Positions 26,939-57,074 of a stretch of 64,000 bases of DNA are shown here, piece after piece. The notes beneath the pieces were generated by a model. The model worked only from the letters and a program-made list of their open reading frames with translations. It was not told the origin of the DNA and searched no databases. This stretch comes from an uncultured Dehalococcoidia bacterium. Lineage in GTDB: Bacteria; Chloroflexota; Dehalococcoidia; Lucifugimonadales; GCA-2712585. Positions within the stretch are counted from its first letter, which is position 1; the number at the start of each line of letters is the position of its first letter. The stretch is from assembly GCA_958295715.1 (NCBI GenBank), contig OY282371.1, positions 1,175,261 through 1,239,260 of the forward strand, written 5' to 3'. The position numbers were made by a program, and so were the translations under genes.

Positions 26939-28069
26939 ATACCCAAGAGAACCCTGCCGAACCTGTCCGAACCCGAAGGCGCCCTGCTGGTTGGGGCGCA
27001 TCTAAAGGGAACTGGCGCCCTGTGGGGGCTGGAAAGCTCCCTTGAGGAACTGGCCCAACTCACCGCGACGGCCGGCGGCCGGGTAGTGGCCACCGTCAGC
27101 CAGCAGTTGGAAAAGCCCACCCCCTACTACGTGGGCAAGGGCAAGCTGGAGGAGATAAGGGAACTCAAGGCAGACCTGCACGCGGACCTTGTCATCTTTG
27201 ACGACGAGCTCACCCCTACCCAGCAGCGAAACTTGGAGCAGGCCCTGGGCGAAAAGGTCATCGACCGCACCGCCTTGATACTAGACATCTTCGCCCGTCA
27301 CGCCCGCACCCGCGAGGGGCAGTTGCAGGTGAGGCTGGCCCAACACCAGTACCTGCTGCCGCGGCTGGCGGGCCAGTGGTCCCACCTGGAGCGGCTGGGA
27401 GGCGGCATCGGCACCCGCGGCCCCGGCGAGACCCAGATAGAAACTGACCGCCGCCTTATACGAGGGGCCATCAAGCGGCTGAAGGCCGAGATAGACGGGG
27501 TGAAACGCAGCAGAACCCTCCACCGCAACCGGCGCAGGAAGTCGGGGCTGCCGGTGACCTCCTTGGTGGGCTACACCAACGCGGGCAAGAGCACCCTCTT
27601 CAACACCCTATCCAGGGCCGGCGTGACCTCCGAGAACCGGCTCTTCTCCACCCTCGACACGGTCACCCGGCGGATACGGCTCCCCTTCGGCGACGAGATG
27701 CTCTTGACCGACACGGTGGGCTTCATCAACAAGCTGCCCCCCACCGTGGTGTCGGCCTTCCACGCCACCCTTGAAGACTTGCAGGACGCCGACCTCCTTC
27801 TACACGTCGTCGACGCGTCCAACCCCATGGCCTCGCAGCAGGCCCAGGCCGTTGAGGAAACCTTGGAGCAGTTGGGGCTGGAGGACAGGGCCAAGCTCCT
27901 GGTCCTCAACAAGATAGACGCGGCCCAGGGCAACGGCGCCCGCGACATACCCTTGAACCCCCGCTACCGGAGAGTGTCCGTCTCCGCCACGAAGGGGTGG
28001 AACATCGACGGCCTCCTGAACGGCATTCAGGACGTCCTGGTCAGGGAATGGGTCGCAAAAGCCATCTAA
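26939..28069 (+). CDS. hflX: Ribosome-splitting GTPase HflX (probable ATA start)
   Basis: [33 protein letters not shown] and NKID motifs; N-terminal homology extends upstream of GTG 27086. Confidence 0.93.
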
Positions 28070-28330
28070 CCGGCCAATGGGGTGGAACATTGACGGCCTG
28101 CTGGACGGCATTCAGGACGTCCTGGTTAGAGAATGGGTCGCCAAAGTCGTCTGACCGGCCAATGGGATGGAACATCAACGGCCTACTGGACGGCATTCAG
28201 GACGTCCTGGTCAGGGAATGGGTCGCCAAAGCCATCTAACCGGCCGATGAGATGGAACATCGACGGCCTGCTGGACGGCATTCAGGACGTCCTGGTCAGG
28301 GAATGGGTCGCCAAAGCCGTCTGACCGGCC
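27995..28330 (+). repeat. 85-bp tandem array x4 of the hflX 3' end
   Basis: Units start at 27995, 28080, 28165 and 28250. Confidence 0.95.
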
Positions 28331-28540
28331 TGTAACCCGATATTCAAAAAATTACCTGTTGGTTCGCACAATAAATGTTATGTTATCTAAGGGCCTCGTT
28401 TTTTCCAGGGTTTACATAATAACGCCCCTCCCCGGCTGAATCCGCCCCCCACCCCCCGCATCCCCTTCCCCTCCGCCAAGCAGGGCGGCCGGCGTTCCCC
28501 GCCACGCGCCCGCCACCCCATGTCGTTCCGCGCCCTCCTT

Positions 28541-29250
28541 CCGGCATTCCCGCGCAGGCGGGAAGGGCGCGTGCGCCCACTTAGTTTTGAAGAGCGATGG
28601 TTCTCCGGCGCGAGGTTTCTGCCGTCCCGCCCACCTTCCCGTCATTCCCGCGAAGGCGGGAATCCATCCCCTCCTGTTACCGTTTGACGCCGGCTCCCTT
28701 GGCTTGATGGGGCGTGAGAAGGGCGCAGTGGCGATTGGCGAAGGGTTTCTGGATTCCCGTTTCGGCGGGGGTGACGGGCAGGTGGGTGGGAATTAAAGAG
28801 AAGTGACGCAGTTATGAGGCTGGCGGGGCGCGCTCCGCCGGCTGGATTCGCGATGAAGGGGGAGGGGATGGATTCCCGCCTGCGCGGGAATGACGGAAAG
28901 GGGGGGAATGCGGATAGGGGGCCAGAAGCCTCCAACGCAGAACCGGCCCTCTTCGAAACTTACGTGCGCGCACGCGCCCTTCCCGCCTGCGCGGGAATGA
29001 CGGAAAGGGGGGTGGTCGGGAATGCGGATAGTGGGGCCAGAAGCCTCCAACGCAGAACCGGCCCTCTTCGAAACTTACGTGGGCGCACGCGCCCTTCCCG
29101 CCTGCGCGGGAATGACGGGAAGGGGGGCGGGAATGCGGATAGGGGGGCCAGAAGCCCCCAGCCAGAACCAACGCTCTTGAAAACTAAGTGGGCGCACGCG
29201 CCCTTCCCGCCTGCGCGGGAGTGACGGATGAGAGGGGTCGGGAATGCGGA
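28541..29250. repeat. Palindromic repeat cluster 5
   Basis: Forward copies at 28545-28668; inverted copies at 28748-29250, including ~120-bp tandem units. Confidence 0.92.
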
Positions 29251-29353
29251 AAGGGGCAGGCCGCCGGCCCCGGCGCGGCGTCCCTCTATGCCATTCTCAT
29301 AGAGTGGTACAATGGGGGGAGATTTCCTGGCGCGACGAGGTGCGATAGCTCCC

Positions 29354-30541
29354 ATGTCTAAGACCTCCCTATGGCTCATCCTGGCGGTGGGGCTGCTGAC
29401 CGCCGCCGCGGCCGGCTGCGTCCTATACGCCGAAAACCAACCCGCGCCCGCGCCCACCATAGAGCTTCCTGAGGAGGCGCCCCCTGAGTTCGGCGTCCTC
29501 TTTGAGGTCTACTCAGCCCTCATGGAGGACCACTACAACCGCGCCGGCCTCGACCCCACCACCCTCAGCCGCGGGGCCATTCGCGGGATGCTCGACGCCT
29601 TGGACGACGACCACGCCGCCTACCTCGACCCGGAACTCTTCAACACCGAACAGGAGCGGTTCAGAGGCTCCTTTGAGGGCATCGGCGCCGAGGTGAGCGC
29701 GCGGAACGGCCGGATTATAGTCGTGGCCCCCATTCCCAACACCCCGGCCGAGGCCGCCGGCATCCGCTCCGGCGACGAGATCCTTGAGGTCGACGGCGTG
29801 AGCACCGAGGGCATGGGCATCTTCGACGTGGTAGCCAAGATTCGCGGCCCCGAGGGAACCCCCGTAACCCTCCTGGTGCTCCACCAGAACGACTCCTCCC
29901 CCGTCCTCATCACCATCACCCGGGGCGTCGTAAAGGTGTCCACCGTGGATGTTAGGATACTGAGCGGCGGCATCGCCCATCTTCAGGTCCACTTCTTTGG
30001 GGAAAACACCAGCAGCGACTTCAACGAGGCCCTCGACAGGATAAGGCGTCTGAAGGCGCGGGGGCTGGTGTTGGACATCCGCGACAACCCCGGCGGGCGT
30101 GTCGACGCGGTGGTGGCGATGACCAGCCAGTTCCTGAACTCCGGCCTCGTCCTCTACCAGGTCGACGGGTGGGACAGGCGCACCGACTACGCCGTGCGGT
30201 CCGGCGGCCGGGCCAAAGACATCCCCATGGTGACGCTGATAAACGACTTCAGCGCCAGCAGCAGCGAGATTATGGCCGGCGCCCTCCGCGACCACAACCG
30301 GTCCCAACTCATCGGGGTCAAGACCTTCGGCAAGGGCAGCGTCAACGTTCAGCGCTCCCTCAGCGACGGGTCGGGCATCTACTACAGCATCGCCCGGTGG
30401 TTCACCCCCAGTGGCTCCCTCATAGAGGGCGAGGGCATTGAGCCGGACATAGAGGTCCCATCGGACCCGGAGGGGACGGCGGACCCTCAGCTGGACAGGG
30501 CCATTGAAGAGTTGCAGGCCCTCATAGCGGCCGGGAGTTAA
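29354..30541 (+). CDS. ctpA: Carboxy-terminal processing protease (S41A, PDZ)
   Basis: FEGIG, DIRDNPGG, catalytic SASSSE and TFGKG motifs; N-terminal signal/lipobox. Confidence 0.9.
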   Translation: MSKTSLWLILAVGLLTAAAAGCVLYAENQPAPAPTIELPEEAPPEFGVLFEVYSALMEDHYNRAGLDPTTLSRGAIRGMLDALDDDHAAYLDPELFNTEQERFRGSFEGIGAEVSARNGRIIVVAPIPNTPAEAAGIRSGDEILEVDGVSTEGMGIFDVVAKIRGPEGTPVTLLVLHQNDSSPVLITITRGVVKVSTVDVRILSGGIAHLQVHFFGENTSSDFNEALDRIRRLKARGLVLDIRDNPGGRVDAVVAMTSQFLNSGLVLYQVDGWDRRTDYAVRSGGRAKDIPMVTLINDFSASSSEIMAGALRDHNRSQLIGVKTFGKGSVNVQRSLSDGSGIYYSIARWFTPSGSLIEGEGIEPDIEVPSDPEGTADPQLDRAIEELQALIAAGS

Positions 30542-30544
30542 ACC

Positions 30545-31000
30545 GTGGCGCCCACCAAGCAGATATCTGTTAATCGCCAGGCCCTGTTCAACTATGAGAT
30601 CCTGGAGCGGTACGAAGCAGGCATAGAACTGACCGGCTCCGAGATAAAGTCCGTCCGCGCGGGCAGGATAGACCTCAGAGGCAGCCACGCGCGGATTACC
30701 GGCAACGAGTTATGGCTCCACGGCCTCCACATAGCCCTATACGACCCGGCCAGCCGGCAAAACCACGAACCCAAGCGGCCACGCAAACTCCTCCTCCACC
30801 GCAGCGAGATAACGGAGGTGGCGGGCAAGATAGCGCAGAAGGGCTTGACCCTGGTTCCCCTGCGTTTTTATGTTAAGAACCACTGGGCCAAGGTGGAGCT
30901 TGGGCTGGCCCGGGGCAAGCGCAAGTACGATAAGCGCAGGGCCATTATTGAGCGGGATAGGGAGCGGGAAGCGCGGCGGGCCCTTCGCCAAGTGGTGTAG
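30545..31000 (+). CDS. smpB: SsrA-binding protein
   Basis: NR.A.FNY, EAGIEL.G.E.KS.R, RKLLLH and GKRKYDKR motifs. Confidence 0.97.
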   Translation: MAPTKQISVNRQALFNYEILERYEAGIELTGSEIKSVRAGRIDLRGSHARITGNELWLHGLHIALYDPASRQNHEPKRPRKLLLHRSEITEVAGKIAQKGLTLVPLRFYVKNHWAKVELGLARGKRKYDKRRAIIERDREREARRALRQVV

Positions 31001-31054
31001 CCAAACCGGCGCTAGACATATGGCCGTTGTAGGTGGATAATAGGGGCAGGACAT

Positions 31055-31411
31055 GGGGACGCGTGGTTTCGACAGGGGAAGGTCCTGAAGGATTGCAGGC
31101 CGGGGCGCCACCCACCCCGTTAATAAGGTGGTAAAAAAGTAACCGGCGAAAGAGAATTCGCTCTAGCCGTCTAAGCATTTAGACGGCTCGTCTGCCCCCG
31201 CTAACCCCGGGTGCGGGGAGCCAGGCGCAAGAAGGCCGGGGGGCATCCATCCGGAGTCCGGTTAGGGATGGCCTGAGAGCAATCGGATAGCCCTTCAAGA
31301 CTGCGCCGATAGAGGGTTGAAGAGGCGAAAAAAGATTACCGGCTAAGCCTGTAGCATATCCTTGCTAGACTTCTTCTGGACGGGGAGTTCGACCCTCCCC
31401 CGTCTCCACCA
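31055..31411 (+). ncRNA. ssrA: tmRNA; tag (A)GEREFALAV*
   Basis: 5' GGGGACG..TTCGAC; 3' T-arm GGGGAG-TTCGACC-CTCCCC and CGTCTCCACCA; tag ORF ggc gaa aga gaa ttc gct cta gcc gtc taa; follows smpB. Confidence 0.95.
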
Positions 31412-31476
31412 ACCACCTCTTTCACTGCCTAACCCACACCCTTGAGACCACACCACCCTACTGTAGAGGCGCGCCA

Positions 31477-32568
31477 ATGATATGGATAAGAACCGGAACC
31501 GTGTGGGGCCCGGCTTCCCCCCAACCGGTGTTGGAAGAAAAAGGCTTAGAGCGCCTCATCGCAGAGAACCCGGAGTTTCTGCCGCTGGCCGGCTCACCCC
31601 GCCTTTTCGTCCTCGGACGTCAAGTTACCCTAGGAACGGGTGCGGCGGATATCGTCGCGGTGGAGTCGACGGGCCGGCCCGTGATTATAGAGGTGAAGCT
31701 CGCGCGCAACTCCGAGGAGCGAAGGACCATCGTTGCCCAAACGCTTGATTACGCATCCTCACTCCACGGGTACAGCATCAAGGAGTTGGAGGATGGCCCC
31801 CTTTTCTGGCATCTCGCAAACAAGGGCGGGTCCATCATTGAAGCCGTACAGAGCCAAGATAAAGAGGTGGACAAAGAGTCCTTTGAGTCTTCAATGGAGG
31901 GCTACTTAGAGAGGGGAGCCTTCAGACTGGTATTTGCTTTTGACGAGCCGCCGCGACGCGCGTTGGAAAGGTTGGTTAGCTACCTGGACGCGATAACCAT
32001 TGATGAGCTAACCATAGACCTCGTTGCCCTTAGGCTTAGGCGCTACGACATAAATGGCGTAGAAGTCGCTTCACCTAAGCGCATCATCCCAGGTGTGAGA
32101 GAGTATCAACTTAAAGCCTCATCGAAAAGAGCGCGGTCTCAGCGAAGCGAAGCAATCGAATCAGAAGGTGCCGACGACTTCAAAAGGTACCTAGAAGGGG
32201 TCAGCGACGCGGAACGCGAAGGGTACGAACCGTTGATTGCTTGGGCGGAAGAGATAGCGTCGTTGCCTAACGTACACATACTCAGCAGAACCTACAAAAC
32301 CGGAAACGCCAGCCTGATACCCAAGATACGCGCCGATGATACCCGCCTCGTTTTAATATGGAAAGCAGGAAAGCGCCCATCCATGGAATTGAGGTGGGAA
32401 GCGCTTGAAAGGCTGGCGCCCAACTCTATCGAGGCCATTGAAGCGGCCATTGTCACTGAGAGGCTAGAATCCTATAGCACAACGATTCATGAATTCACAT
32501 CGGAGGTTCTGGAGGCGTTGACCGCGGCTTACAAAGAGGCCACCGGCTATCAGGACGAACAGCCCTAA
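31477..32568 (+). CDS. PD-(D/E)xK nuclease-like protein (NucS/DUF91-like N-domain)
   Basis: E..LE..I..NP, ADIVAV...G..VIIEVK and Q.LDYA motifs; visibly lower GC than neighbours. Confidence 0.7.
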   Translation: MIWIRTGTVWGPASPQPVLEEKGLERLIAENPEFLPLAGSPRLFVLGRQVTLGTGAADIVAVESTGRPVIIEVKLARNSEERRTIVAQTLDYASSLHGYSIKELEDGPLFWHLANKGGSIIEAVQSQDKEVDKESFESSMEGYLERGAFRLVFAFDEPPRRALERLVSYLDAITIDELTIDLVALRLRRYDINGVEVASPKRIIPGVREYQLKASSKRARSQRSEAIESEGADDFKRYLEGVSDAEREGYEPLIAWAEEIASLPNVHILSRTYKTGNASLIPKIRADDTRLVLIWKAGKRPSMELRWEALERLAPNSIEAIEAAIVTERLESYSTTIHEFTSEVLEALTAAYKEATGYQDEQP

Positions 32569-32668
32569 CCCGCGCCCTCCGCCGGCGCGTCGCTGACCAA
32601 GGCAGCCGCTAAAGGCCGGCCCCCGGCGCTTATGTCAACAAGCCGCCCGAACTAGCCGGGCCCGTCCC

Positions 32669-33859
32669 TCAGTTCAGGATTCGCTGCCCGTACAGCCTCA
32701 CCGCGTTGTCCCACAATATCTTGCGCTTGCTCTCCTCGGATATGGGCTGCACGATAAAGTCGGGCAAGGCCCTGTCCGGGTCGGGGGCGTCGGGGTGGGA
32801 GTAGTCGGTGTTCCACACAATGTTGTCGTCCCCCAAGGCGTCCACCACGCCCTTCAGGTGGAACTCGTCGGGGTCGCAGGCCACAAATCCCTGCCGCAGG
32901 AAGTACTCGCTGGGACTCAGGGGAAGCGGCTCCAGGTCGTACCACATCCCTTGGCGGCGGTCGCGCAACCCGTGGTCGTTGAGCCGGCCCAGCCAGAAGG
33001 GGAGCCAGCCGGCGTTGCCCTCCAAGAAGGAGACCCGCAGCTTGGGGAAACGTTCCAAGACGCCCAGGAAGATGAGGTGTCCCAGGGATATCATGTTCTC
33101 GAAGGGAAAGCCGATAGCGTGGTCCAGGGCGACCTCAGGCCCCGACACGCTCTGCCGGGGCTGGTAGCGGGAGCCGGTGTGCGGTTCCCCGCTCATGACG
33201 CCGTGGAAGGACACGGGGAAGTCCAACTCCTCGGCCAAGGCCCAGAAGGGGTCATAGGCGGGGTCGTGCCAGGGCCTGCCCTTCGCGGGCTTGGGCATAG
33301 TCACCGTCACGGCTCCCAGACTCTCAACGGCCCGCCGGGTCTCAGCCACCAGACCCTCCACGTCATGCTGGTGAGGCAGCACGCCAACCATCTTGATTCT
33401 GCCGGGGTCCGTGTCGCAAAAGGCCCTGGAAAAGTTGTTATACGCCCGGGCGCAGGCCCACATTAGGCCCTGGTCCATATCGGCGCCAACCCTGAGAGGG
33501 AGGGGCGCGTTGTCAATGCAGACCTGCTTGTCCCAGCCGAGCCTGTCCATGTGCTCAATGCGGCTCTCCGGGGTGAAGCCCGCCTCGTAGGCGGCGCCGT
33601 ACTTCTGCGGCATGAAGTCATCCAAGTCAATGGCGGCCTTGCGGTTGACTCCCGCCCCCTGGATTGTGGTCGTGGTCCTGTTGCCCTTGGGGAAGATCTC
33701 GCACTCCATGAAGCTGCGGCTGGCCCCGGGGCGGCTCTCCTCCGCAGGGCCGACTATGGGCCTGCGGCCGTAGTACTCAGGCTCCATGAATTCGCTCCAC
33801 AGGTCGTGAGGCTCGGTGATGTGCGCGTCGGCGTCTATGACTTTGAAACCCTTGTACAT
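32669..33859 (-). CDS. Amidohydrolase_2-family metal-dependent hydrolase/decarboxylase
   Basis: IDADAH, AYN, FH, ERFP.L...LE..GW and TDY.H motifs; ATG 33859. Confidence 0.88.
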   Translation of the reverse strand: MYKGFKVIDADAHITEPHDLWSEFMEPEYYGRRPIVGPAEESRPGASRSFMECEIFPKGNRTTTTIQGAGVNRKAAIDLDDFMPQKYGAAYEAGFTPESRIEHMDRLGWDKQVCIDNAPLPLRVGADMDQGLMWACARAYNNFSRAFCDTDPGRIKMVGVLPHQHDVEGLVAETRRAVESLGAVTVTMPKPAKGRPWHDPAYDPFWALAEELDFPVSFHGVMSGEPHTGSRYQPRQSVSGPEVALDHAIGFPFENMISLGHLIFLGVLERFPKLRVSFLEGNAGWLPFWLGRLNDHGLRDRRQGMWYDLEPLPLSPSEYFLRQGFVACDPDEFHLKGVVDALGDDNIVWNTDYSHPDAPDPDRALPDFIVQPISEESKRKILWDNAVRLYGQRILN

Positions 33860-33984
33860 GGCTTTGCCCTCCCTACTTTTGTTAACGCTGTTGGGGTATG
33901 ATGCCGGGGCGGTTAACTTGTTGGGATTATAAGCGTCAAACGGGCATTTTGCCACCTTCCGGGGGGAAGGGGCGAGGAGGCGGG

Positions 33985-35226
33985 ATGATAGCCATCGCAG
34001 GGGCAACGCTGCTCGACGGGTCCGGCGGCCCGCCCAAGCCCAACGCCGTGGTGGTCGTGCGGGACGACAGGATAGAGGAGGTGGCTTGGGGAAGCGGCGC
34101 CCGGTTCCCTAAGGACGCCGTCCTCATAGACGCGCCGGGGATGACCCTCATGCCGGGGCTGATAGACTGCCACGACCACCTGGCCCACTTCGGCCACGAC
34201 CTGGCCACCCGTTGGGGCATAAACGAGCCCCAGAGTCTGCGCGGCGCCCGCGTCTACTCCGTGCTGAAGCAGACCCTGGAAACCGGCTTCACCACGGTGC
34301 GCGACGCCGCCGGGCTGGACGCCGGTTTCAGGGAGGCCGTGGATTCGGGTCTCATGCCCGGCCCCCGGCTTCAGGTGGCCCTGAACTTCATCACCCCCAC
34401 GGGAGGGCAGGCCGACCGGACCAGCCCATCGGGTCACTCGCCAAGCCTTGTTCCCCAGCCCGACCTGCCCCTTGGCATAGCCGACGGCCCCTCGGCCATG
34501 AGGGCGAAGGTCAGGGAGATGGTCCGCGCCGGGGCCGACGTCATCAAGACCGCCGTAACGGGGTGGGGCCGTCCAACCAGGGGTTTGGGGCCTAAAGACC
34601 TGATAATGACTAGGGCGGAACTGGACGCCTTGGTGGACGAGGCCCACGTTATGGGCCGCAAGGTTATGTGCCACGTTCTCGGCGGCCCCGGCCTGCGGAT
34701 GGCCGTTGAGGCGGGGGTCGACTCTATAGAGCACGGCTCCTACCTGAATGAGGACCCGGACCTGCTCCCCATGATGGCGCGAAAGGGCATCTGGCTGATA
34801 CCGACCTTCAGCGTGTTCGTTCATCACGCCGCCAGGGGGACCCCTCACGAAAGCGCGCGGGCCAAGGACTTCAGAGAGCATCACGTCAGCAGCTTGAAGC
34901 TGGCCCTCAAAGCGGGTGTGAAGGTGGCGGCCGGTTCCGACGCCGGGGCGTGGGTCCACGGCAACAACGCCCACGAGTTGAGCTGCCTGGTCGAGTCCGG
35001 CATGACGCCCCTTGACGCCATCACCGCCGCCACGGGAGACGCCGCCCAGTGCCTGGGGATGGCCGACGCTGGAACCATAGCCCCCGGCAAGAAAGCCGAC
35101 CTGATACTGGCCCGGGGCAACCCCTTGCAGGACGTCACCATCTTGGAAAGGGGAAGGGCCGTTGAGTTCGTGATGAAGGACGGGCGGGTGTTCTTGGACC
35201 GCAGGGGAGCCAAGCCCTCCCCATAG
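33985..35226 (+). CDS. Amidohydrolase (Xaa-Pro dipeptidase-like)
   Basis: MPGLIDCHDH, GFTTVRD, GADVIK, SIEHG and GSDAG motifs; GAGGAGG RBS. Confidence 0.88.
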   Translation: MIAIAGATLLDGSGGPPKPNAVVVVRDDRIEEVAWGSGARFPKDAVLIDAPGMTLMPGLIDCHDHLAHFGHDLATRWGINEPQSLRGARVYSVLKQTLETGFTTVRDAAGLDAGFREAVDSGLMPGPRLQVALNFITPTGGQADRTSPSGHSPSLVPQPDLPLGIADGPSAMRAKVREMVRAGADVIKTAVTGWGRPTRGLGPKDLIMTRAELDALVDEAHVMGRKVMCHVLGGPGLRMAVEAGVDSIEHGSYLNEDPDLLPMMARKGIWLIPTFSVFVHHAARGTPHESARAKDFREHHVSSLKLALKAGVKVAAGSDAGAWVHGNNAHELSCLVESGMTPLDAITAATGDAAQCLGMADAGTIAPGKKADLILARGNPLQDVTILERGRAVEFVMKDGRVFLDRRGAKPSP

Positions 35227-35230
35227 CTCT

Positions 35231-35300
35231 AGGCGCTACCGGCTGAAGGGCCAGCGAGTCTGGGTTCCGGCCGCGTGCAGGTAGGCGTCGGCGACCTTCA
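35231..35300 (-). repeat. Downstream duplicate of the amidase 3' end
   Basis: 70-bp near-copy of 35320-35389. Confidence 0.93.
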
Positions 35301-35324
35301 TTCCCTTCCCCATTGCTTCAGGCG

Positions 35325-36722
35325 CTATTGGCTAAAGGGCCAACGGGTCTGGGTTCCGGCCGCGTGCAGGTAGGCGTCGGCGACCTTCAGCAAGATGTCC
35401 TCGTGAAAGTTCGGCCCCACCAGCTGAAGGCCGATGGGCAGGCCGCTCTTGGTGAAGCCGCAGGGAACCGAGATGGCGGGATGCCCGGAGGTGTTGAAGG
35501 GGCGGGTGAGCCTGGAAGCCAGGTCTCCGATATCCCAGTCCTTCCCGGCGTGGCTGAACTCGAACCGGCCCAAGGGGGGCGGCGGCAGAATGGAGGCGGG
35601 GGTTAGCAAGACGTCCGCCTCTTTGAAGGCCGCCTCAATCTCCGCGATGAAGCGGCCCCGCGTCGCCTGGCCGCGAATGTAGTTGGGGGCCGACGCCCTG
35701 GCCCCCTTTTCGATTCGCTGGTAGAGGATATCCGGCGTCTCGGCGGGGAACCCGTCCATTAGCGGCTGGAAGTAGGCCGCCGTCTCAGCCTCCGAGAGCA
35801 TGGCGTGGACCTCGTTCACCTCTTCCACGCTGGGCAGAGACACGTCAACCAGAGAGCAGCCCATCTCGCCAAGGCGGGCGACGGCTCCCCGGAGGGCGGC
35901 CTCCACCTCGGCGTCAAGGTAGTCCCAAAAGTAGTCCCTTGGGACTCCGACCCTGGTTCCCGCCGCGTCGCCGTCCAAAGCGGCGAGGTAGTCGGGAACG
36001 GGGGCGTCGGCGCTGAACGGGTCCCGCGGGTCGTGGCCGGCGATGACCTGCATCACGAGGGCGCAGTCCCGCGCGGTGCGGGTGAGGGGGCCAACGTAGT
36101 CGTTGGGCACGCCGTAGACCCCGGCGCCGTATCGGCTCACGCGTCCAAAGGTGGGCTTCAGCCCCACGACGCCGCAGCAGGCCGCCGGATAGCGCACGGA
36201 GCCGCCCCCGTCGGAGCCGATGGAGGCCAGGTCGCAGCCTGCGGCCACCGCCGCCCCGCCGCCGCTGCTGGAGTAGCCGGGCAGGCGGCCCAGGTCCCAC
36301 GGGTTCTTGGTAAGGCCGTACTCAGGCTCAGGGAAATACTCGCCGTAGAGGGGGTTGGTCTTGCCGACCAGGATGGCCCCGGCGCGCTTCAGCCGCTCAA
36401 CCACGGCGGCGTCATAGCCGGGAACGTGGGACTCCAACCGCTTCTCGCCAAAGGTCGTCCGGACTCCCCTCACGTGGAAGATGTCCTTAACGGATACGGG
36501 GATGCCGTGGAGAGGGCCCCGGTAGCCCCCGCGCAGGATTTCAGCCTCCGCTTCCCGGGCGGCTCCCTCGGCCTCGTCGGAGCAGATGGTCACGTAGGCG
36601 TTGAGCAGCGGGTTGAGCCGGTGGATGCGTTCCAGGCGCTCCCTCACCAGTTCCACCGGTGACAGGGACTTCCGGCGGATAAGCTCCGCCGTCTTATGTA
36701 AAGTTACGCCGCCCGATTCCAT
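35325..36722 (-). CDS. Amidase-signature family enzyme
   Basis: LHGIPVSVKD, GYSSSGG and GSDGGGSVRYPA motifs. Confidence 0.9.
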   Translation of the reverse strand: MESGGVTLHKTAELIRRKSLSPVELVRERLERIHRLNPLLNAYVTICSDEAEGAAREAEAEILRGGYRGPLHGIPVSVKDIFHVRGVRTTFGEKRLESHVPGYDAAVVERLKRAGAILVGKTNPLYGEYFPEPEYGLTKNPWDLGRLPGYSSSGGGAAVAAGCDLASIGSDGGGSVRYPAACCGVVGLKPTFGRVSRYGAGVYGVPNDYVGPLTRTARDCALVMQVIAGHDPRDPFSADAPVPDYLAALDGDAAGTRVGVPRDYFWDYLDAEVEAALRGAVARLGEMGCSLVDVSLPSVEEVNEVHAMLSEAETAAYFQPLMDGFPAETPDILYQRIEKGARASAPNYIRGQATRGRFIAEIEAAFKEADVLLTPASILPPPPLGRFEFSHAGKDWDIGDLASRLTRPFNTSGHPAISVPCGFTKSGLPIGLQLVGPNFHEDILLKVADAYLHAAGTQTRWPFSQ

Positions 36723-36759
36723 ATACGCGGCCCTTCAATCCCTCCAAACGAGGGAGTTG

Positions 36760-37383: not shown

Positions 37384-37857
37384 CTAGTTCCGGTTCTTCC
37401 TGGCTTCTTTGGCCCAGAAGCTCCACCTCATGGCCTCGCACTCTTCGGTGAGCACGCCCCTGACCACCTTCACGGCGCCGCGTCCCACGAAGCTGAGGGC
37501 CTTCTCCACGCTGTAGTCTCCAAACTCCCCGTGATGGCGGCTGTAGTTGCCGCCTAGGACCACCGTTGTTATCCCCGCCGACACTATGGCGCCAACGCAC
37601 ATGATGCACGGCTCCCCGGTGCTGTAGAGGACGCATCCCGTAAGGTCCAGGCTCCCCTGGGCGGGGCCGGCGTTCTTCATGGCGGCTATTTCAGCGTGCG
37701 CGGTAAGGTCCAGGTCGCGCTTGGCCGTGTTGCAGCCCACGGCCACCACCTGCCCATCTCTGACCACAACGGACCCGACCAGGGCCTCACCCTCCTTTTC
37801 CCAACGGTGGGCCTCCTCCAAGGCAATACGCATAAACTTCTCATGCTCTGAAGACAT
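37384..37857 (-). CDS. Zn-dependent nucleoside/nucleobase deaminase (CDA superfamily)
   Basis: HAE and EPCIMC motifs. Confidence 0.88.
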   Translation of the reverse strand: MSSEHEKFMRIALEEAHRWEKEGEALVGSVVVRDGQVVAVGCNTAKRDLDLTAHAEIAAMKNAGPAQGSLDLTGCVLYSTGEPCIMCVGAIVSAGITTVVLGGNYSRHHGEFGDYSVEKALSFVGRGAVKVVRGVLTEECEAMRWSFWAKEARKNRN

Positions 37858-37890
37858 ATCTCGTCCTCCGTTGAATCGTATTCGGGGGGA

Positions 37891-38367
37891 TTAGCCTCTT
37901 TCGCCGCGGGCCATTCTGGCCTTGTACCGCCAAGACATCTCCTCGCACTCCTCAACCAGGACGCCGCGCACCACGCTGACCTTGTCGCCCCACTCCACCA
38001 ACTCGATGGCCTTCTCCACGCTGTAGTCGCCGTAGGAGCCGTAATTTGGGTTGTAGTTGCCGCCCATCACCAGGACGCTGACGCCGGCGAAGACGATGGC
38101 CCCGGCGCACATCATGCACGGCTCAAAGGTGGTGTAGAGGGTGCAGCCGGAGAGGTCCGTGTGGCCCAGAGCGGGGCCGGCGTTGCGCATCGCGTCGGTC
38201 TCGGCGTGGGAGGTGAGGTCAAGGTTGGATATGGCCTGGTTGTGGCCCTTGGCGATGACCCGCCCATCCTTGACAATAACGCTGCCCACGGGCGAGTTGC
38301 CCTTCTCCTCCCCCCGGCGGGCCTCCTCCAAGGCCATTTCCATATACCGCTCGTGCTCAGATGCCAT
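37891..38367 (-). CDS. Zn-dependent nucleoside/nucleobase deaminase, tandem paralog
   Basis: HAE and EPCMMC motifs. Confidence 0.88.
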   Translation of the reverse strand: MASEHERYMEMALEEARRGEEKGNSPVGSVIVKDGRVIAKGHNQAISNLDLTSHAETDAMRNAGPALGHTDLSGCTLYTTFEPCMMCAGAIVFAGVSVLVMGGNYNPNYGSYGDYSVEKAIELVEWGDKVSVVRGVLVEECEEMSWRYKARMARGERG

Positions 38368-41450: not shown

Positions 41451-41453
41451 AGA

Positions 41454-47378: not shown

Positions 47379-47439
47379 GGCGAGACGGGGAGGTCTGCAA
47401 GGGCCGCTCCCTTCGCCGTTCCCGCCTCCCCTCTCCGTT

Positions 47440-47897
47440 CCGTCATTCCCCGCACCCTCTCCCTCCCGTCATTCCCGCGCAGGCGGGAAGGGCGCGTGCG
47501 CCCACCTAGTTTTGAAGAGCGTTGGCTCTGTGTTGGGGTTTCTGCTTCCCGCGCCCCCCTTCCGTCATTCCCGTGAAAACGGGAATCCAGGAAGGCCCCA
47601 ACCCCAAACAGCCAATGTGTCGCTCTCACACCTTCGGCCCACGCTGCCGCCTCGACCCTACGGTCTGTCAAAGGAAACCGATGGCGCTAGAAGAGAATCG
47701 GGAAAGATGGATTCCCGCCTTCGCGGGAATGACGGATAAGAAGGCGGGGGAACGACGAGGAGGGAGAACGGGAATGACGGATAGGGGGCGGGGGAATGCG
47801 GATAGGGGTGGGCAGAAGCCTCAAACGCAGAACCAACACTCTTCAAAACATGAGTGGGCGCACGCGCCCTTCCCGCCTGCGCGGGAATGACGGATAA
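47440..47897. repeat. Palindromic repeat cluster 7
   Basis: Forward copies at 47440-47595; inverted copies at 47708-47897. Confidence 0.92.
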
Positions 47898-47970
47898 GAA
47901 GGCGGGGTTGACGTGGCCAGGGGCTTCCGGTGGAGGGGGCAGAGGGCAATGACGAGGGAGGGGGAGGGTC

Positions 47971-48045: not shown

Positions 48046-48180
48046 TTCCCGGCTATTGTAAGGCCAACGGGGGGTTTTTTCCAAGGCCGCGGGGGAACGG
48101 CTGAAGTCGTTAGTGTTCCCAACGCTCCCGTCACGCTTTTTCCAAGCCGCGCGGGGAACGGCGCTTATGTAAACTCCTTA

Positions 48181-49233: not shown

Positions 49234-49239
49234 CGGCGC

Positions 49240-50229: not shown

Positions 50230-50255
50230 GGGTCAGGGACGGCGCGGCCCACGGG

Positions 50256-51026: not shown

Positions 51027-51141
51027 AGGACTGCTCCATTGGTTGGTTTATGGACTGCCGGTTCTCTTGTGGGCAGAGGGGCTATTTTCGCAGGAATGGC
51101 GGGATTAGGGAAGGGGGCGGCCTCCGGCGACGCCAACACAG

Positions 51142-51232
51142 GAACAACCCTCTTCAAAACTAAGTGGGCGCACGCGCCCTTCCCGCCTGCGCGGGAATGA
51201 CGGGAGGAGAGGGGCGGGAATGACGGATAGGA
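51142..51232 (-). repeat. Palindromic repeat cluster 8
   Basis: Inverted composite copy CTCTTCAAAACTAAGTGGGCGCACGCGCCCTTCCCGCCTGCGCGGGAATGAC plus a half-site. Confidence 0.9.
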
Positions 51233-51344
51233 TGGGGAAGCGACCATGGTCCTACTCCCCAATGCCGGATAAAGAGGGCGGCAAGGATGGGAGGGGGAAG
51301 CGGCCACCGTCCTATGCCGCCCTCTTTATGCTGCGCGGGGAGGG

Positions 51345-52715
51345 TCACCTGAAGGCGGGCAGGTTCTCGTCCAGGTATTCGTAGGCCCTGGCCAGTTGAC
51401 TGTCCCTGCTCATGAGCAGGTCTTCGCGGCTGAGGGGCGCCAGGATGTCCGGCACAATGCCATCCTGAATTATCGCCTTGCCCGAGGGGGTGTGCCACCG
51501 GGAGACGGGGAAGAGGAGGGCGCCGCCGTTGCTGAGTCCGGCGTAGCTGTTGGTGAAACCCCGGCCTCTGGTGGTGTCGCCGATGACGATGCCCCTGCCG
51601 GAGTCCTGCAACGCCCCCGCGAGGGCCTCGGCGGCCTCCGCCGTGCCCTCGTTCACCAGCACGACCAACCGGATGTCGGGGTTGAGGGCGCCGCTGGCGT
51701 CTATGGAGAGGTCCGTTCGCTGCTGGAGGTTGTCTATCTCGTAGAGGAAGAGGCCCTCGGGGAGGAACTGGGCGGCCACGTCTCGGGCCACGTTGAGGGG
51801 ACCCTCCTCATTGCTCCGGAGGTCCAACACCATGCCCAGGGTTTCCAACTGGTTGAAGGTCTCGAGGGCGTCTAGCACCTCGTTCATGGTGTTCTCGCCA
51901 AAGGACTTGATGTAGAGGTAGCCGACGGAGCTGGGCAGCAGGGACATGTCCACGGTGGGGATGTCCAGCAGGGCGCGGGTGACGGTCACCTCCCTGGGTT
52001 CGCTTTCGGTGGCGCGGTTAATGAGGAAGGAGACCCTGGTTCCCGCAGAGCCTTTGATGTTGGCGGCGGCCTCTGCCAGGCTGCGGCCGGCCACCGGCTG
52101 GTCGTTGACTTCAAGGATCACGTCGTTGCGCTGGAGGCCGGCCCTCTCGGCCGGGCCGCCGCTCACGAGGGAGACGACGGTTAGGCTGCCGTCTTCAATG
52201 CCGATAACGGCCCCCACGCCCTCGTAGCTGGTGTCAGTCCGCTCCTGGGACATCCGGTAGGCCTCGGGGGTCAGGTAGGCGCTGACGTTGTCATCCAGGG
52301 ACTGCATCATGCTCCGGAGAGCGGCCTCGGCGAGGAGGTTGGAGTCAACTTCGGGCCACGTGTCGCGGACGAGGGTCCAGGCGCGCCACACGTCTTCCAG
52401 CCCGTCGGGGACCTCGGCGGGGGGACGACGGCGCACGTTGTCCAACTGGGTTAGAAAGGGGTACGCGGGCTTTTCCGCAAAGTCGAGCATTCCCAGGATG
52501 ATGTCGCCGGAAACGGCCTCTGCATCCAAGGAGGCGGTGTTTACGTATGACTTATTGACGACCTCCCAACCCTCCCAAACGACGGCCTCAGGGCTGAACG
52601 CGGGGGCCTCCCGGCGGGTGAAGCAGCCGGAGAGGATGATAAGGAGCGCGCCGCATGAAAGGACTAGAAGGGCGAGGGACTTGAGCTTACGGCCTGTTGT
52701 TATTGAAGCTATCAT
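51345..52715 (-). CDS. S41/CtpA-like PDZ lipoprotein with substituted catalytic residues
   Basis: YEGVG PDZ motif, DLRSN, TAEAAE and TRGRG; LSGC lipobox. Confidence 0.85.
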   Translation of the reverse strand: MIASITTGRKLKSLALLVLSCGALLIILSGCFTRREAPAFSPEAVVWEGWEVVNKSYVNTASLDAEAVSGDIILGMLDFAEKPAYPFLTQLDNVRRRPPAEVPDGLEDVWRAWTLVRDTWPEVDSNLLAEAALRSMMQSLDDNVSAYLTPEAYRMSQERTDTSYEGVGAVIGIEDGSLTVVSLVSGGPAERAGLQRNDVILEVNDQPVAGRSLAEAAANIKGSAGTRVSFLINRATESEPREVTVTRALLDIPTVDMSLLPSSVGYLYIKSFGENTMNEVLDALETFNQLETLGMVLDLRSNEEGPLNVARDVAAQFLPEGLFLYEIDNLQQRTDLSIDASGALNPDIRLVVLVNEGTAEAAEALAGALQDSGRGIVIGDTTRGRGFTNSYAGLSNGGALLFPVSRWHTPSGKAIIQDGIVPDILAPLSREDLLMSRDSQLARAYEYLDENLPAFR

Positions 52716-52833
52716 ATGCCTGCCATGACCTCCGAATGGTGAGCGCTTGATAGGCGCGGGGCTGTGACTTGCGTCAAATTTGTTACGTATTGTAGCATCC
52801 AACGGATTGATTTAGAATTCAGAGGCTAGAGAG

Positions 52834-54606
52834 ATGAAGTTTACCCGTTCAACGCACTTGAACCAAGGTCAGGCTATCAAGGGGGCCGGCAAGTCCATAG
52901 CGTCCCGGTTGTGGATGGCGCTGCTCGTGGGGTTGGTCCTGGCCGCCGCGGCCTGCGCGCCGAGGGCCGGCGACGACGCCACGGAGCCAGCGACCACGGC
53001 GGCAACGGCCGCCCCGGGGCAGGCGGCCACCGGCCAGGCATCCACCCCGGCGGCGGCGACGGCCGCGCCAGCCCCGGCAGGCGGCGGGGAGTCGCGGAGC
53101 GGCTATGAGAGGGGAACCCTGCGTCGCCTCTACTCCGACCCGCCGACCCTGGACCCGCACCTGGCCACCGACGCCACGTCGTCGGCCATCATCGTGGAGG
53201 TGTTCGGCGGGCTGGTGACCATCGACCTCGACCTGAAGGTGGCCCCGGACGTCGCGAGGGACTGGTTGGTGAGCGACGATGGGCTGGTGTACACCTTCTA
53301 CCTGCGGGAAGACGCCGTGTTCCACGACGGCAAGCCCATTACGGCTCACGACTTCAAGTGGTCCCTAGAGCGGGCCACCGACGTGGTGACGGAGGCCCTC
53401 GGCGTGGAGCAGTACCTTGGCGACATTGTGGGCGTGGACGCGAAGGTGAGCGGGGAGGCGCGGGAGGTGTCGGGCGTGAGGGCCGTTGACGACCACACGC
53501 TGGAGATAACTATAGACGAGCCCAAGTCCTACTTCCTGTCCAAGCTCACCTATCCCATAGCCTTCGTGCTGGACAGGGAGAACGTGGAGTCGGGGAACCG
53601 GTGGGTGAGGACGCCCAACGGCTCAGGGCCTTTCAAGCTGGAGGAGTACGTGCCCGGCGAGCGGATAACGCTGGCGCGGAATCCCAACTATCACCTGGGC
53701 CCGCCGCATCTTGAGCGGGTGAGGCTCATCCTGAGCGGCGGCACCTCTATGCTGATGTACGAGAACGACGAGATAGACGTGACGGGTATCGGCCTTGCTG
53801 ACTTGGACCGGATTCTGGACCCCAACCACAGCCTGAACTCGGAGTTGATGACGAGCGCCCCGTCCTTCAGCACCACCTACATCGGCATGAACACCACCAT
53901 GCCGCCCTTTGACGACGTGAAGGTGCGCCAGGCGTTGAACTACGCCATCAACCGAGAGGAGATAGCAAGCCTGGTGCTGGCCGACCTGGTGGAGCCCGCC
54001 AAGGGCATCCTGCCGCCGGGGTTTCCCGGCTACAACCCCGACCTGCCGGGGTACGAGTACAACCCTGAGAAGGCGCAGCAGCTTCTGGCCGAGTCCAAGT
54101 ACGCCGGCAACATTGATGACTACCCGATAGTGTTGACCGTCGCGGGGGGCCTCGGGGCGTCGGTGGACCTGGACTTGGAGAGCATCACGCGCTCGTGGAG
54201 CGAGATCCTTGGGGTGGACGTGCAGTTCCAGCAGACGGAGTGGGCCACGTATCTACAGGACCTCTACAAGAACCGGTTCGACATGTTCCAAGTGGGATGG
54301 GTGGCGGACTACCCCGATCCTCAGAACTTCCTGGACATCCTGTTCCACAGCGAGAGCAGCAACAACCATACCCAGTACAGCAACCCGGAGGTTGACCGGC
54401 TCCTAGAGCAGGCCCGCACGGAGAGAGACCAGGCGACCCGCTTCAGGCTCTACCAGGAGGCGGAGGCCATTATAGTTGACGAGGCGCCTTGGGCGTCCCT
54501 GTGGCACAGCGGCGAGCGGTACACCCTGGTGAAGCCGTGGATCAATGACTACTACCAACTGCAATTGATCATCCCCAAACTGCGATTCGTCCGCCTAACG
54601 GAGTAG
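52834..54606 (+). CDS. oppA: Peptide ABC transporter substrate-binding lipoprotein
   Basis: AAAC lipobox, DPPTLDP, GSGPFKL, VRQAL and W.ADYPDP motifs; start may be later. Confidence 0.88.
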   Translation: MKFTRSTHLNQGQAIKGAGKSIASRLWMALLVGLVLAAAACAPRAGDDATEPATTAATAAPGQAATGQASTPAAATAAPAPAGGGESRSGYERGTLRRLYSDPPTLDPHLATDATSSAIIVEVFGGLVTIDLDLKVAPDVARDWLVSDDGLVYTFYLREDAVFHDGKPITAHDFKWSLERATDVVTEALGVEQYLGDIVGVDAKVSGEAREVSGVRAVDDHTLEITIDEPKSYFLSKLTYPIAFVLDRENVESGNRWVRTPNGSGPFKLEEYVPGERITLARNPNYHLGPPHLERVRLILSGGTSMLMYENDEIDVTGIGLADLDRILDPNHSLNSELMTSAPSFSTTYIGMNTTMPPFDDVKVRQALNYAINREEIASLVLADLVEPAKGILPPGFPGYNPDLPGYEYNPEKAQQLLAESKYAGNIDDYPIVLTVAGGLGASVDLDLESITRSWSEILGVDVQFQQTEWATYLQDLYKNRFDMFQVGWVADYPDPQNFLDILFHSESSNNHTQYSNPEVDRLLEQARTERDQATRFRLYQEAEAIIVDEAPWASLWHSGERYTLVKPWINDYYQLQLIIPKLRFVRLTE

Positions 54607-54621
54607 GCCGCCGCCGCTTTC

Positions 54622-55548
54622 ATGGGGGCCTACGTATTAAGACGGCTGGCCTGGACGCCGGTCCTGCTCATGGTAGTGGCCTTCATTACCTTTCTGTTGG
54701 GCGTCTACGGCCCGGGAGACCCGGTGGAGGTGCTGCAAGGCCAGTACAACAATCCGGAAGTGGTGGAACGCATCCGCGAGCGGCGCGGGCTGAACAGGAA
54801 CGTGTTCGTCCAGTACGCCGTTTATGTCAAGAACATCTTCCAAGGCGACCTGGGGGAGAGCTTCAAGTACCGCGGCCGGACGGTGAGCGAGTTGATATGG
54901 AAGCGGATGTGGGTGTCGGCGCAGCTGGGGATGGCGGCTTCCATCATATCGGTGGCCCTGGGCATACCCTTAGGCGTCTACGCGGCTATGAAGCAGGGCA
55001 CGTGGGCCGACGTGACGACGGTGAGCGCGACCCTGTTGTTCATGTCCCTGCCGGTGTTCATCACGGCGCCGGTGCTGCTGCTGACCTTGGGCCTGTGGCT
55101 GGGCATACTTCCCATATCGGGTTGGGGAGGGTTCTTTGACCCGCGCATAGTGATGCCGGCCCTGGCCCTGGGCGTCCCCGGCATAGCGGTTATCACCCGG
55201 CTGACGCGGGCAAGCACCCTGGAGGTCCTGTCCCAGGATTACGTGCGTACGGCGCGGGCCAAGGGGCTAAGTGAGTTCGTGGTGAGGCGGCGCCACATCT
55301 TGAGGAACTCGCTCATACCCGTTTTCACGGTGGTGGGGCTTTCCCTGGCCACGCTGGTGGAGGGGGCCTTCATAACCGAGGGGTACTTCGGGATTCCGGG
55401 GATAGGCAGCCTGGCCATCGAGTCCTTCTTCTCGCGGGACTACCCCGTCATCACGGCCCTGGCCCTGGTCATCGCCGCGGCCTTTGTCGCGGCCAACCTG
55501 ATTGTCGACATCGGATACCGGTTCCTCGACCCCCGGATAAGGTACTAG
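54622..55548 (+). CDS. oppB: Peptide ABC permease
   Basis: PGDP, GDLG.S, DYVRTARAKGL and LDPRIR motifs. Confidence 0.9.
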   Translation: MGAYVLRRLAWTPVLLMVVAFITFLLGVYGPGDPVEVLQGQYNNPEVVERIRERRGLNRNVFVQYAVYVKNIFQGDLGESFKYRGRTVSELIWKRMWVSAQLGMAASIISVALGIPLGVYAAMKQGTWADVTTVSATLLFMSLPVFITAPVLLLTLGLWLGILPISGWGGFFDPRIVMPALALGVPGIAVITRLTRASTLEVLSQDYVRTARAKGLSEFVVRRRHILRNSLIPVFTVVGLSLATLVEGAFITEGYFGIPGIGSLAIESFFSRDYPVITALALVIAAAFVAANLIVDIGYRFLDPRIRY

Positions 55549-55564
55549 GGAGCCACGCCGGGGA

Positions 55565-56554
55565 ATGGCAAGGGCAGAGACGGATACGGGGCTGCCGGAG
55601 ACGGGCGGGGGGTCGGGGAGCCTGTGGGCCCTGGCCCTGCGGCGGCTGATTCGCAACAAGATAGCCTTGGCCTGCATGACGGTGATAGGCGTGATGTATC
55701 TCGCGGGGACGCTTACCATCTTCACGTCGCCCACGCCCTACGGCTACAACGACCAGGACCTCCGCAAGGAGTCGGTGAAGCAGGGGCCGAGCCTGAGCCA
55801 TCCCTTTGGCACCGACAGGCTGGGAAGGGACCTGCTGACGCGGGTCATCTACGGCCTGCGCACCACGGTTATCATCACGGTGGCGGGGATGCTGACGGGC
55901 GGGTTGTTCCTGGGCGTCGGGCTGGGCCTGATAGCCGGGTATTTCGGGCGGTGGATGGACGCGGTCATCATGCGGGTGGGGGAGGTGTTCTTAGCCTTCC
56001 CCGGGCTGCTGCTGGTCATGCTCATCGCGGCCACGGTGAAGCCGCGGGTGAAGGACTGGGCCCAGGGGTGGTCGGGCGGCCTCGAGCGGCTCACGGGCAT
56101 AGACATCATACAGTTGGGCGTGGTGGACTACGTGGTCATCTTCGGCGCCCTGTCGGCCTTCTCGTGGGTGGGCATGGCGCGGCTGGTGAGGGGGCAGGTC
56201 CTCTACGTGAAGGGAAGCCAGTACATAGAGGCGGCCATGGCCATGGGAGCGTCCAACCGGCGCATCCTGCTGTCCCACGTGCTGCCCAACATCATCAGCC
56301 CGGTGATAGTGGTCGTGTCCATGGGCATGGGGGCGACGGCGGGGTCGGAGATAGTGCTTAGCTGGCTTGGAATCGGTATCCAGCCTCCGACGCCGAGTTT
56401 GGGCGTGATGATATTTCAGAACGGGAACATCAGCGTCCTGCGGTCGGACCCGCACCTAATCCTATTCCCGGTGCTGACGGTCACGGCCCTGATTTTCGCC
56501 TTCAACCTGCTGGGCGACGCCCTGAACGACGCCTTTAACCCTCGCACCCGGTGA
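55565..56554 (+). CDS. oppC: Peptide ABC permease
   Basis: HPFGTD.LGRD, YIEAA.A.G, H.LPN and NLLGDAL.DA motifs. Confidence 0.9.
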   Translation: MARAETDTGLPETGGGSGSLWALALRRLIRNKIALACMTVIGVMYLAGTLTIFTSPTPYGYNDQDLRKESVKQGPSLSHPFGTDRLGRDLLTRVIYGLRTTVIITVAGMLTGGLFLGVGLGLIAGYFGRWMDAVIMRVGEVFLAFPGLLLVMLIAATVKPRVKDWAQGWSGGLERLTGIDIIQLGVVDYVVIFGALSAFSWVGMARLVRGQVLYVKGSQYIEAAMAMGASNRRILLSHVLPNIISPVIVVVSMGMGATAGSEIVLSWLGIGIQPPTPSLGVMIFQNGNISVLRSDPHLILFPVLTVTALIFAFNLLGDALNDAFNPRTR

Positions 56555-57074
56555 GGGGCCAGTTCAAGCAGGACTCAGGCCGCTGGGCGACGCCCTGAAC
56601 GACGCCTTTAACCCTGTTCCCGGCGCTGACGGTCACGGCCCTGATTTTCGCCTTCAACCTGCCGGGCGACGCCCTGAACGACGCGTTTAACCCACGGACC
56701 CGGTGAGGGGCTATTCAAGCAGGACTCAACCTGGCGGGCGACGCCCTGAACGACGCCTTTAATCCACGCACCCGGTGAGGGGCTAGTTCAGGCAGGACTC
56801 AGGCCGCTGGGGGACGCCCTGAACGACGCGTTTAACCCACGCACCCGCTGAGGCGACAGTTCAAGCAGGACTCAGGCGGCTAGAAGACGCCCTGAACGAC
56901 ACCTTTAATCCACAGACTCGGTGAGGCGCCAGTTCAAGCAGGACTCAACCTGCTGGGCGACGCCCTGAACGACGCGTTTAACCCACGCACCCGGTGAGGG
57001 GCCAGTTCAAGCAGGACTCAGGCTGCTGGCCGACGCCCTGAGCGACGCGTTTAATCCACGGACACGGTGAGGGG
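56508..57074 (+). repeat. ~73-bp tandem array x8 of the oppC 3' end
   Basis: GACGCCCTGA(A/G)CGAC at 56516, 56589, 56668, 56740, 56813, 56886, 56959 and 57032. Confidence 0.95.

Follow-up and report, generated by a model that had tools for sequence, protein, structure and literature searches.

The 64,000-nucleotide stretch analysed here (the window) belongs to an uncultured Dehalococcoidia bacterium of the Chloroflexota (NCBI GenBank assembly GCA_958295715.1, contig OY282371.1, positions 1,175,261 to 1,239,260) and contains three genes, hflX, an amidase gene and oppC, that are each followed head-to-tail by copies of their own 3' ends (Table 1). The repeated tails consist of 16-24 codons, the stop codon and 10-25 further bases, and both TRF and alignment of the units bear out the four, two and eight units respectively that an initial annotation, made from the letters alone, had listed for these genes.

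Table 1. Genes and array units in the window (positions counted from its first letter; a live end is the one used by the gene, the other units are spare copies)
Feature	Position	Strand	Remarks
hflX GTPase gene, live	27086..28069	+	End inside unit 1; Pfam GTP-bdg_N, GTP-bdg_M, MMR_HSR1
hflX unit 1 (live end)	27994..28078	+	Final 24 codons, TAA 28067-28069, 9-10 bases
hflX unit 2, spare	28079..28163	+	Stop TGA 28152-28154
hflX unit 3, spare	28164..28248	+	Stop TAA 28237-28239; unit 3/4 junction spanned by Logan contigs
hflX unit 4, spare	28249..28333	+	Stop TGA 28322-28324
Amidohydrolase gene	33898..35226	+	Pfam Amidohydro_1; last bases and stop inside distal 89-bp unit
Amidase gene, live	35325..36722	-	End in proximal unit; Pfam Amidase
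Amidase unit 1 (live end)	35304..35392	-	20 codons, stop 35325-35327, downstream bases
Amidase unit 2, spare	35215..35303	-	Stop kept at 35236-35238; junction spanned by Logan contigs 35271-35376
oppC permease gene, live	55565..56554	+	End in unit 1; Pfam BPD_transp_1, OppC_N
oppC array, 8 units	56502..57075	+	Unit starts 56502, 56575, 56654, 56726, 56799, 56872, 56945, 57018

The hflX array is composed of four exact 85-bp units over 27994-28333 (27994-28330 by TRF, period 85, 4.0 copies), each with 24 codons, a stop and 10 bases, and the stops run TAA, TGA, TAA, TGA. Two variable sites occur in all four combinations, and the units have therefore recombined with each other and are mosaics with no simple series. 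An AT-rich patch of ~100 bases (28334-28440) lies directly 3' of the last unit in this genome of 64% GC, and the local GC skew switches sign near 28-30 kb; a replication origin was considered as a cause and rejected, the cumulative skew over the contig being noisy with no clear origin. The amidase array has two units of 89 bp (35215-35392; by TRF 35218-35389, period 89, 1.9 copies) in which 20 codons and the stop are repeated, and four of the five coding differences in the spare unit are synonymous. The same 89-bp unit also contains the final bases and stop of the convergent amidohydrolase gene, so that the duplication leaves both genes intact. As the initial annotation had noted, the coding parts of the hflX and amidase units align without an indel, and the whole hflX array is likewise free of them. 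The oppC units are ~73 bp long (56502-57075 by TRF, with periods of 73, 146 and 219), and the array comprises the live end, six complete copies that all retain TGA, and one truncated copy, with TGA present in seven of the eight units. The truncated copy is unit 2, which is joined via a 6-base microhomology to a copy whose start lies ~45 bases more upstream in the gene. The array alternates between two further junction types, and at least three separate joining events are recorded in it. The units are locus-specific, with each of 18 matching its own array only, apart from short chance matches and one nearby copy, and Rfam identifies a tmRNA and one tRNA in the window but nothing on the arrays.

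Because this genome is a metagenome assembly, the arrays could in principle have been made by an assembler concatenating strain variants of a single tail, which would also show synonymous differences. Four public sequencing runs, all from one sample, contain 0.89-0.90 of the sampled words of the region, and the Logan k-mer contigs of these four runs extend without a single difference across two junctions, that between hflX units 3 and 4 (28204-28304) and that of the amidase array (35271-35376), with flank-like depth at the bridged junctions in three of the four runs listed and with each copy's own variants present. Two array junctions are thus bridged, the arrays were not created by the assembler, and an artefact is so improbable that we give it almost no weight. 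The listed contig pieces omit 28050-28203, so that the order and number of hflX units 1-3 have no independent confirmation, and the runs probably derive from the assembly's own source sample, such that the contigs test the assembler and not the biology. No variant letters are seen inside the arrays in the contigs, which is uninformative either way since contigs lose rare variants.

Tail arrays are not restricted to the window. The assembly is 2.40 Mb in two contigs (C1 and C2), with 96.6% completeness, and with thresholds of a period of at least 40 and a score of at least 100 TRF reports 178 array loci, made up of 22 CRISPR pieces, 35 inside coding-like open reading frames (ORFs), 71 with the NTS hairpin motif, 30 others, and 20 that touch a gene stop. 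A stricter rule requiring at least 17 nt of coding overlap leaves 15 arrays that cover 17 gene ends, none with the NTS motif. The tail arrays overlap their genes by 15-142 nt including the stop, with a non-coding unit part of 5-130 nt, and the unit border has no fixed relation to the stop codon. Six arrays have a half-integer copy number, in the arrangement R-S-R-S-R (tail-spacer-tail-spacer-tail), and the spacer is unlike the flank that follows the last repeat, as would be expected if the spacer had arrived with the extra tail; pieces of a dispersed mobile element were rejected as the origin of the spacers, the units having no other copies in the genome. A four-unit 185-bp array (C1:1336358-1337100) ends a gene that, from its tail peptide, we take to encode a ribosome-hibernation-factor-like protein (HPF). 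Its 141 coding bases are identical in three units, a 9-base patch of its spacer differs between units at 8 positions, and a 4-base microhomology lies at its border. No microhomology was seen at the hflX unit borders, and inspection by eye of the unit alignments gave no motif common to the junctions.

A second class of tail duplicates is dispersed. A self-BLAST for low-copy direct repeats with copies 100 bp to 30 kb apart yields 31 rows in which one copy contains a gene stop, of which 16 were dropped (seven tandem arrays, seven giant repeat or leucine-rich-repeat protein genes, and two paralogous neighbouring genes). The 15 that were kept flank inserts of 0.1-15 kb, and the copy is downstream of the gene in 13 of them. 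In all, about thirty gene ends are duplicated, either in tandem or dispersed.

The initial annotation had described an enrichment of differences at third codon positions together with retention of the stops, and had argued that neutral decay of a slippage duplicate does not fit such a pattern. These observations stand, both in the window and across the genome. The changed sites at codon positions 1/2/3 number 4/1/7 in hflX, 0/1/4 in the amidase and 2/8/11 in oppC, or 6/10/22 in total. For a genome-wide test, 16 gene tails from the 15 arrays were aligned (233 codons) and the minimum number of changes was counted for each column; an array with a 356-bp period was omitted, its unit containing a whole small ORF and its copies being 77% alike, masking was applied to the non-homologous half of oppC unit 2, and the non-homologous third slice of one array was replaced by a true further copy 100 bp away. 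The changes at positions 1/2/3 are 20/20/45, far from uniform, with 96 changes over 661 non-coding columns. There are 44 synonymous and 41 non-synonymous changes and no new stop was created, compared with the 26.7% synonymous changes (and 31.7% at position 3) predicted from the arrays' own non-coding spectrum (p 7.6e-7, or p 2.7e-4 under an assumed 33%). The excess is also present in the spare copies alone (30:37, p 0.001), where many of the non-synonymous changes fall in the first 1-3 codons at the junctions, and in the tandem arrays outside the window (23:24, p 9e-4). Of 47 evaluable spare copies, 46 have retained the stop, the sole exception being a change of TAG to CAG.

The dispersed duplicates behave similarly, with 43:29 changes overall (n=15) and 37:21 in those with a downstream copy (n=13). 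At fabF (C1:1939675-1941768, outside the window) the tail recurs as a 340-nt copy 428 bp downstream of the gene, with 15 synonymous and 0 non-synonymous differences. NTS hairpins occur between the two fabF copies, and the distal one abuts the start of a short ORF that may be IS30-like. Pooling of all the tail copies, a check suggested in the initial annotation, gives 81:62 and an apparent ratio of non-synonymous to synonymous rates (dN/dS) of 0.28. We conclude firmly that much of the divergence arose while these sequences were live gene ends and, tentatively, that they were live ends in other strains.

One of two readings offered in the initial annotation is that the copies are themselves functional, either as translated micro-ORFs that repeat the tail or as silent cassettes that are swapped to vary the C-terminus. 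In-frame ATG codons lie exactly at the junctions of all three hflX copies (28079-28081 region, 28164, 28249) and at that of the amidase copy (35299-35301), opening 25-codon frames that repeat the protein tail, and retention of the stops in all but one copy is consistent with such a role. These junction ATGs are not general across the arrays, however: among 45 spare copies with the expected stop, 25 lack any in-frame start codon (ATG, GTG or TTG), every evaluable oppC copy among them; an ATG is present in 14 and a Shine-Dalgarno-like motif in only 4, which tells against micro-peptides. Swappable C-termini fare no better, as the peptide of the live end is encoded unaltered by 22 of 47 spare copies and roughly half of all changes are silent, so that there is little diversity to swap; these figures also led us to reject silent-cassette antigenic variation of the pilE/pilS type. 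The array periods are mostly not multiples of three, and the arrays are absent from nine congener hflX and 11 congener oppC loci. We thus regard functional copies as very improbable.

The copies are not accompanied by any obvious recombination machinery. Integrase, transposase and reverse transcriptase families are absent among the 47 window ORFs scanned, in agreement with the initial annotation. The genome has two Phage_integrase matches, neither of them in the window or in the inserts scanned, and 0 matches to Resolvase, RVT_1 or Ku. A diversity-generating retroelement is ruled out by the absence of RVT_1 matches and by the finding that only 12 of the 85 coding changes are at a consensus A. 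ComEC and DprA are both present in the genome, although they say little because most control genomes have both.

The inserts between the dispersed tail repeats have a GC content of 48-62% in most cases, and the repeats around cargo are 42-375 bp long. The cargo includes a Pycsar-effector-like protein (PycTM), a SMODS protein, a methyltransferase and large family-less ORFs, and no recombinase was found in the inserts scanned. For example, 109-bp gene-tail repeats at C1:713087-714665 surround a low-GC insert with the Pycsar-effector-like gene and a 230-aa family-less ORF, 76-bp gene-tail repeats at C1:1621305-1626782 surround a low-GC insert with a 1261-aa family-less ORF and two small ORFs, both without a recombinase, and a 64-bp repeat pair around a nuclease gene at argS forms another dispersed locus.

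The bracketing of inserts by 13 dispersed tail repeats, some of them with defence-type cargo, and the pairing of a live end with a synonymously diverged copy raise the question of whether these are attachment-site scars of small integrative elements, which would have brought replacement gene 3' ends with a recombinase acting in trans and later lost their interiors. At icd of E. coli, the element e14 and phage 21 bring such a replacement 3' end for the gene, and there too the live end and the displaced copy differ mostly at silent sites, the classic footprint of elements that insert into gene 3' ends. Those cases have an integrase and a whole element, whereas the arrays have neither: the tandem tails are only 3-45 bases apart with no element between them, the junctions have no common motif, the units are locus-specific, and the few genomic recombinase matches lie away from the inserts. 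Attachment-site scars are therefore a distinctly improbable source.

Comparison with relatives was made at the hflX and oppC loci of congeners, which are other species (at most 83% identical) and not strains. At nine congener loci hflX has a single tail and no tail array, and at 11 loci oppC has a single tail followed by unrelated downstream DNA. The same pipeline applied to 400 kb of each of two congeners, G009 and G004, finds 0 tail arrays and 0 dispersed tail repeats, the zero for G004 being the weaker since the ORF filter covered only 66% of its DNA, compared with 1-6 tail arrays in each of five 400-kb slices of the genome studied here. The arrays are thus young and lineage-specific, as their absence from the congeners indicates. 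An unrelated 54-bp repeat of 2.3 copies is found 17 bases after the hflX stop of G009 (L004 1213-1333), and it excludes the gene tail. A downstream stretch in congener G012 was considered as a counterpart of the oppC spacer and discarded, the ~12 bases that are alike being too weak to use.

The account that we favour, with slightly better than even confidence, is that the arrays are passive by-products of duplication and of recombination between strains, and not a device. An illegitimate event would first duplicate a segment of 50-190 bp spanning the stop codon, either by microhomology-mediated tandem duplication or by a one-sided join (homology-facilitated or Campbell-type) during integration of DNA from a related strain. 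Such a duplication would be harmless and would persist because the first copy keeps an intact frame and stop; equivalent duplications within genes or across gene starts would mostly be lost. Unequal crossing-over, as the structures of the arrays suggest, would then multiply the unit and allow different units to become the live end. The spare sequences would have evolved as live ends under purifying selection, in other strains or earlier in the same lineage, and would have been placed by homologous or one-sided recombination, a history that would account for mainly silent differences and kept stops; the statistics support this last step, and no donor was seen. With more donor DNA between two tails, the same process may give tail repeats that bracket low-GC cargo genes. 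The three junction types and the microhomology of the oppC array, and the microhomology at the HPF border, are signs of illegitimate joining.

A simpler possibility is in-place duplication only, with a gene repeatedly duplicating its own end through microhomology and the spare units being successive snapshots of it, no foreign alleles being involved. Microhomology-mediated tandem duplication has been put forward as a general source of tandem repeats (PMC13167724 and a 2026 bioRxiv preprint), and it is compatible with the constant period of arrays and with the microhomologies at the HPF and oppC joints. If frozen copies of one evolving gene end then decayed neutrally, the apparent dN/dS would be at least ~0.5, which the pooled tail copies reject (p 3e-4). 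The exclusively silent differences at fabF, the spacers of the half-integer arrays and the mosaic hflX units likewise argue against it, and we judge in-place duplication alone to be unlikely.

Several observations nonetheless weigh against the account that we favour. The constant unit length in most arrays and the whole copy numbers (hflX, HPF, and the arrays at 544309 and 2215530) are equally as expected from in-place duplication. The tandem arrays alone have a dN/dS of 0.34 and reject the snapshot model only marginally (p 0.045, or p 0.21 for the arrays outside the window), and the pooled rejection leans on fabF, without which the dispersed set gives p 0.15. In the 35 bases past the fabF stop there are 0 differences, where ~4-5 are expected at the silent-site rate. 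An apparent dN/dS of 0.28-0.34 indicates that some neutral decay is mixed in, the values for housekeeping genes between strains being generally lower. Seventeen gene ends are overlapped by tandem arrays, compared with no more than 8 gene starts (a ceiling, obtained by taking the start of the longest ORF), and four of these 8 are NTS arrays; the 3' bias has p 0.007 relative to the four non-NTS starts and p 0.11 relative to all eight, with gene starts crudely placed, and it is not clear in the dispersed set (29 tail rows and up to 22 head rows, uncurated). Such a bias can in any case be explained by selection alone, since a gene is unaffected when the duplicated segment takes in its stop. Nor does the account explain why many such copies occur here and none in two congeners. 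Finally, no unit was matched to a donor allele, and no conspecific sequence was found in which to seek one: metagenome contig scans with exact patterns from the hflX tail and a conserved fabF stretch gave 0 matches, and the run search located the region in runs of a single sample, the only other run listed containing almost no words of it. Contig C2 was examined as a possible second-strain copy and dismissed, as it has no homology to C1.

The other reading in the initial annotation is that each array is an archive of alleles stacked by capture of relatives' DNA. The silent excess favours the part of this proposal in which the copies evolved as live gene ends, whereas donor matching gave nothing, with no conspecific genome or metagenome contig found; the archive is the better of its two readings, although unproven. 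It could in a stronger form be an active habit of the lineage, in which conspecific 3' ends are repeatedly captured and stacked as a chronological archive, perhaps in connection with natural transformation and the abundant Ssn/NTS hairpins, with the same entry points admitting defence cargo without an integrase; we consider this improbable. The further suggestion of an undescribed system is not sustained: the arrays have no associated enzyme and are missing from congeners, and similar footprints of recombination have been published. There is no sign of a dedicated molecular system.

The closest of these footprints are the strings of orphaned 3' ends at rhs and type VI secretion system (T6SS) loci (Jackson et al. 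2009, PMC2935791; Kirchberger et al. 2017, PMC5361080). In these accounts, homology with the gene's conserved part anchors an incoming end, which displaces the old end downstream, and a one-sided illegitimate join or a circular intermediate is proposed, with no integrase. The three window arrays and 13 of the 15 dispersed loci share with this C-terminal displacement, as described at rhs, contact-dependent inhibition and T6SS loci, the presence of displaced 3' ends downstream in the same orientation. The ends displaced there are different toxin tips with immunity genes, kept by selection, whereas the genes here are housekeeping genes with near-identical ends of 15-47 codons, no cargo and a regular period. 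No gene lies between the units of the window arrays and the copies are not functionally different tips; being alike in function, they do not make the arrays members of the toxin-tip family. The arrays behave as cargo-less C-terminal displacement at housekeeping genes, multiplied into units of regular period; as no literature search was directed at tail arrays behind housekeeping genes, we make no claim that the pattern is unpublished.

A second parallel is gene insertion accompanied by target duplications that are long (>30 bp) and variable, without mobility genes (Furuta, Abe and Kobayashi 2010, PMC2853133), found mostly in naturally competent species, with Nobusato et al. 2000 cited and the mechanism of insertion treated as open in the passages concerned. 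Our dispersed loci resemble these in having direct repeats of >30 bp, inserts of <20 kb and no mobility genes, and the congener hflX (9) and oppC (11) loci, in other species, have a single tail. The window arrays differ in having only 3-25 bases between repeats and up to eight copies, and those passages of PMC2853133 contain no analysis of synonymous differences between the repeats. Transformation can also generate tandem duplications via out-of-register pairing (Johnston et al. 2013). Microhomology-mediated tandem duplication is reported to be mostly neutral and, through selection, depleted from coding DNA. Duplications of this type, and bacterial minisatellites or variable-number tandem repeats, share with the arrays head-to-tail units of tens to hundreds of bases; the periods of the arrays are equal, and microhomology is present at the HPF border and at one oppC joint but not at hflX. 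Neutral divergence is expected for them, however, and duplication alone leaves the silent excess (44:41) and the kept stops unexplained.

The genome also has abundant intergenic tandem arrays of the NTS/dRS3 hairpin type, from which the gene-tail arrays differ in having no NTS motif and units found nowhere else in the genome. In the window NTS/dRS3-type arrays are located at 23700-23930, 28873-29256, 47429-47807 and 63480-63844, and their contig depth reaches thousands. Other features of the window include a 2.5 kb region without a called gene (59773-62323) between dnaN (58621-59772, leftwards transcribed) and an AIR-synthase-family gene, with an array of 96 bp x 2.9 at 60422-60694 and another of 112 bp x 4.8 at 61778-62311 (95% alike), the final 112-bp unit of which continues directly into the next gene's ribosome-binding site and start. 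The tmRNA (31055-31411; Rfam, 140.8 bits) is located 3' of smpB and is followed directly by lower-GC DNA with a 363-aa ORF that matches no Pfam family (region 31055-32568). At the 3' end of the tmRNA (31369-31376) alternative letters and joints occur in the contigs, and this end may serve as an entry site for an island; a search over 5 kb for a repeat of it gave none. Two adjacent paralogous genes at 37384-38367 (157 and 158 aa) have a cytidine/dCMP-deaminase fold and also match the MafB19-like deaminase.

Tail arrays of this kind can mislead both gene callers and variant callers. If our account is correct, the spare ends of about thirty housekeeping genes would preserve, in an uncultured bacterium, a record of earlier allele replacements. 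This record could be used to measure the natural rate of one-sided or out-of-register recombination, such events being documented chiefly at toxin loci and in transformation experiments in the laboratory. The account would also connect harmless duplications of gene tails to the way in which defence genes enter gene ends without an integrase.

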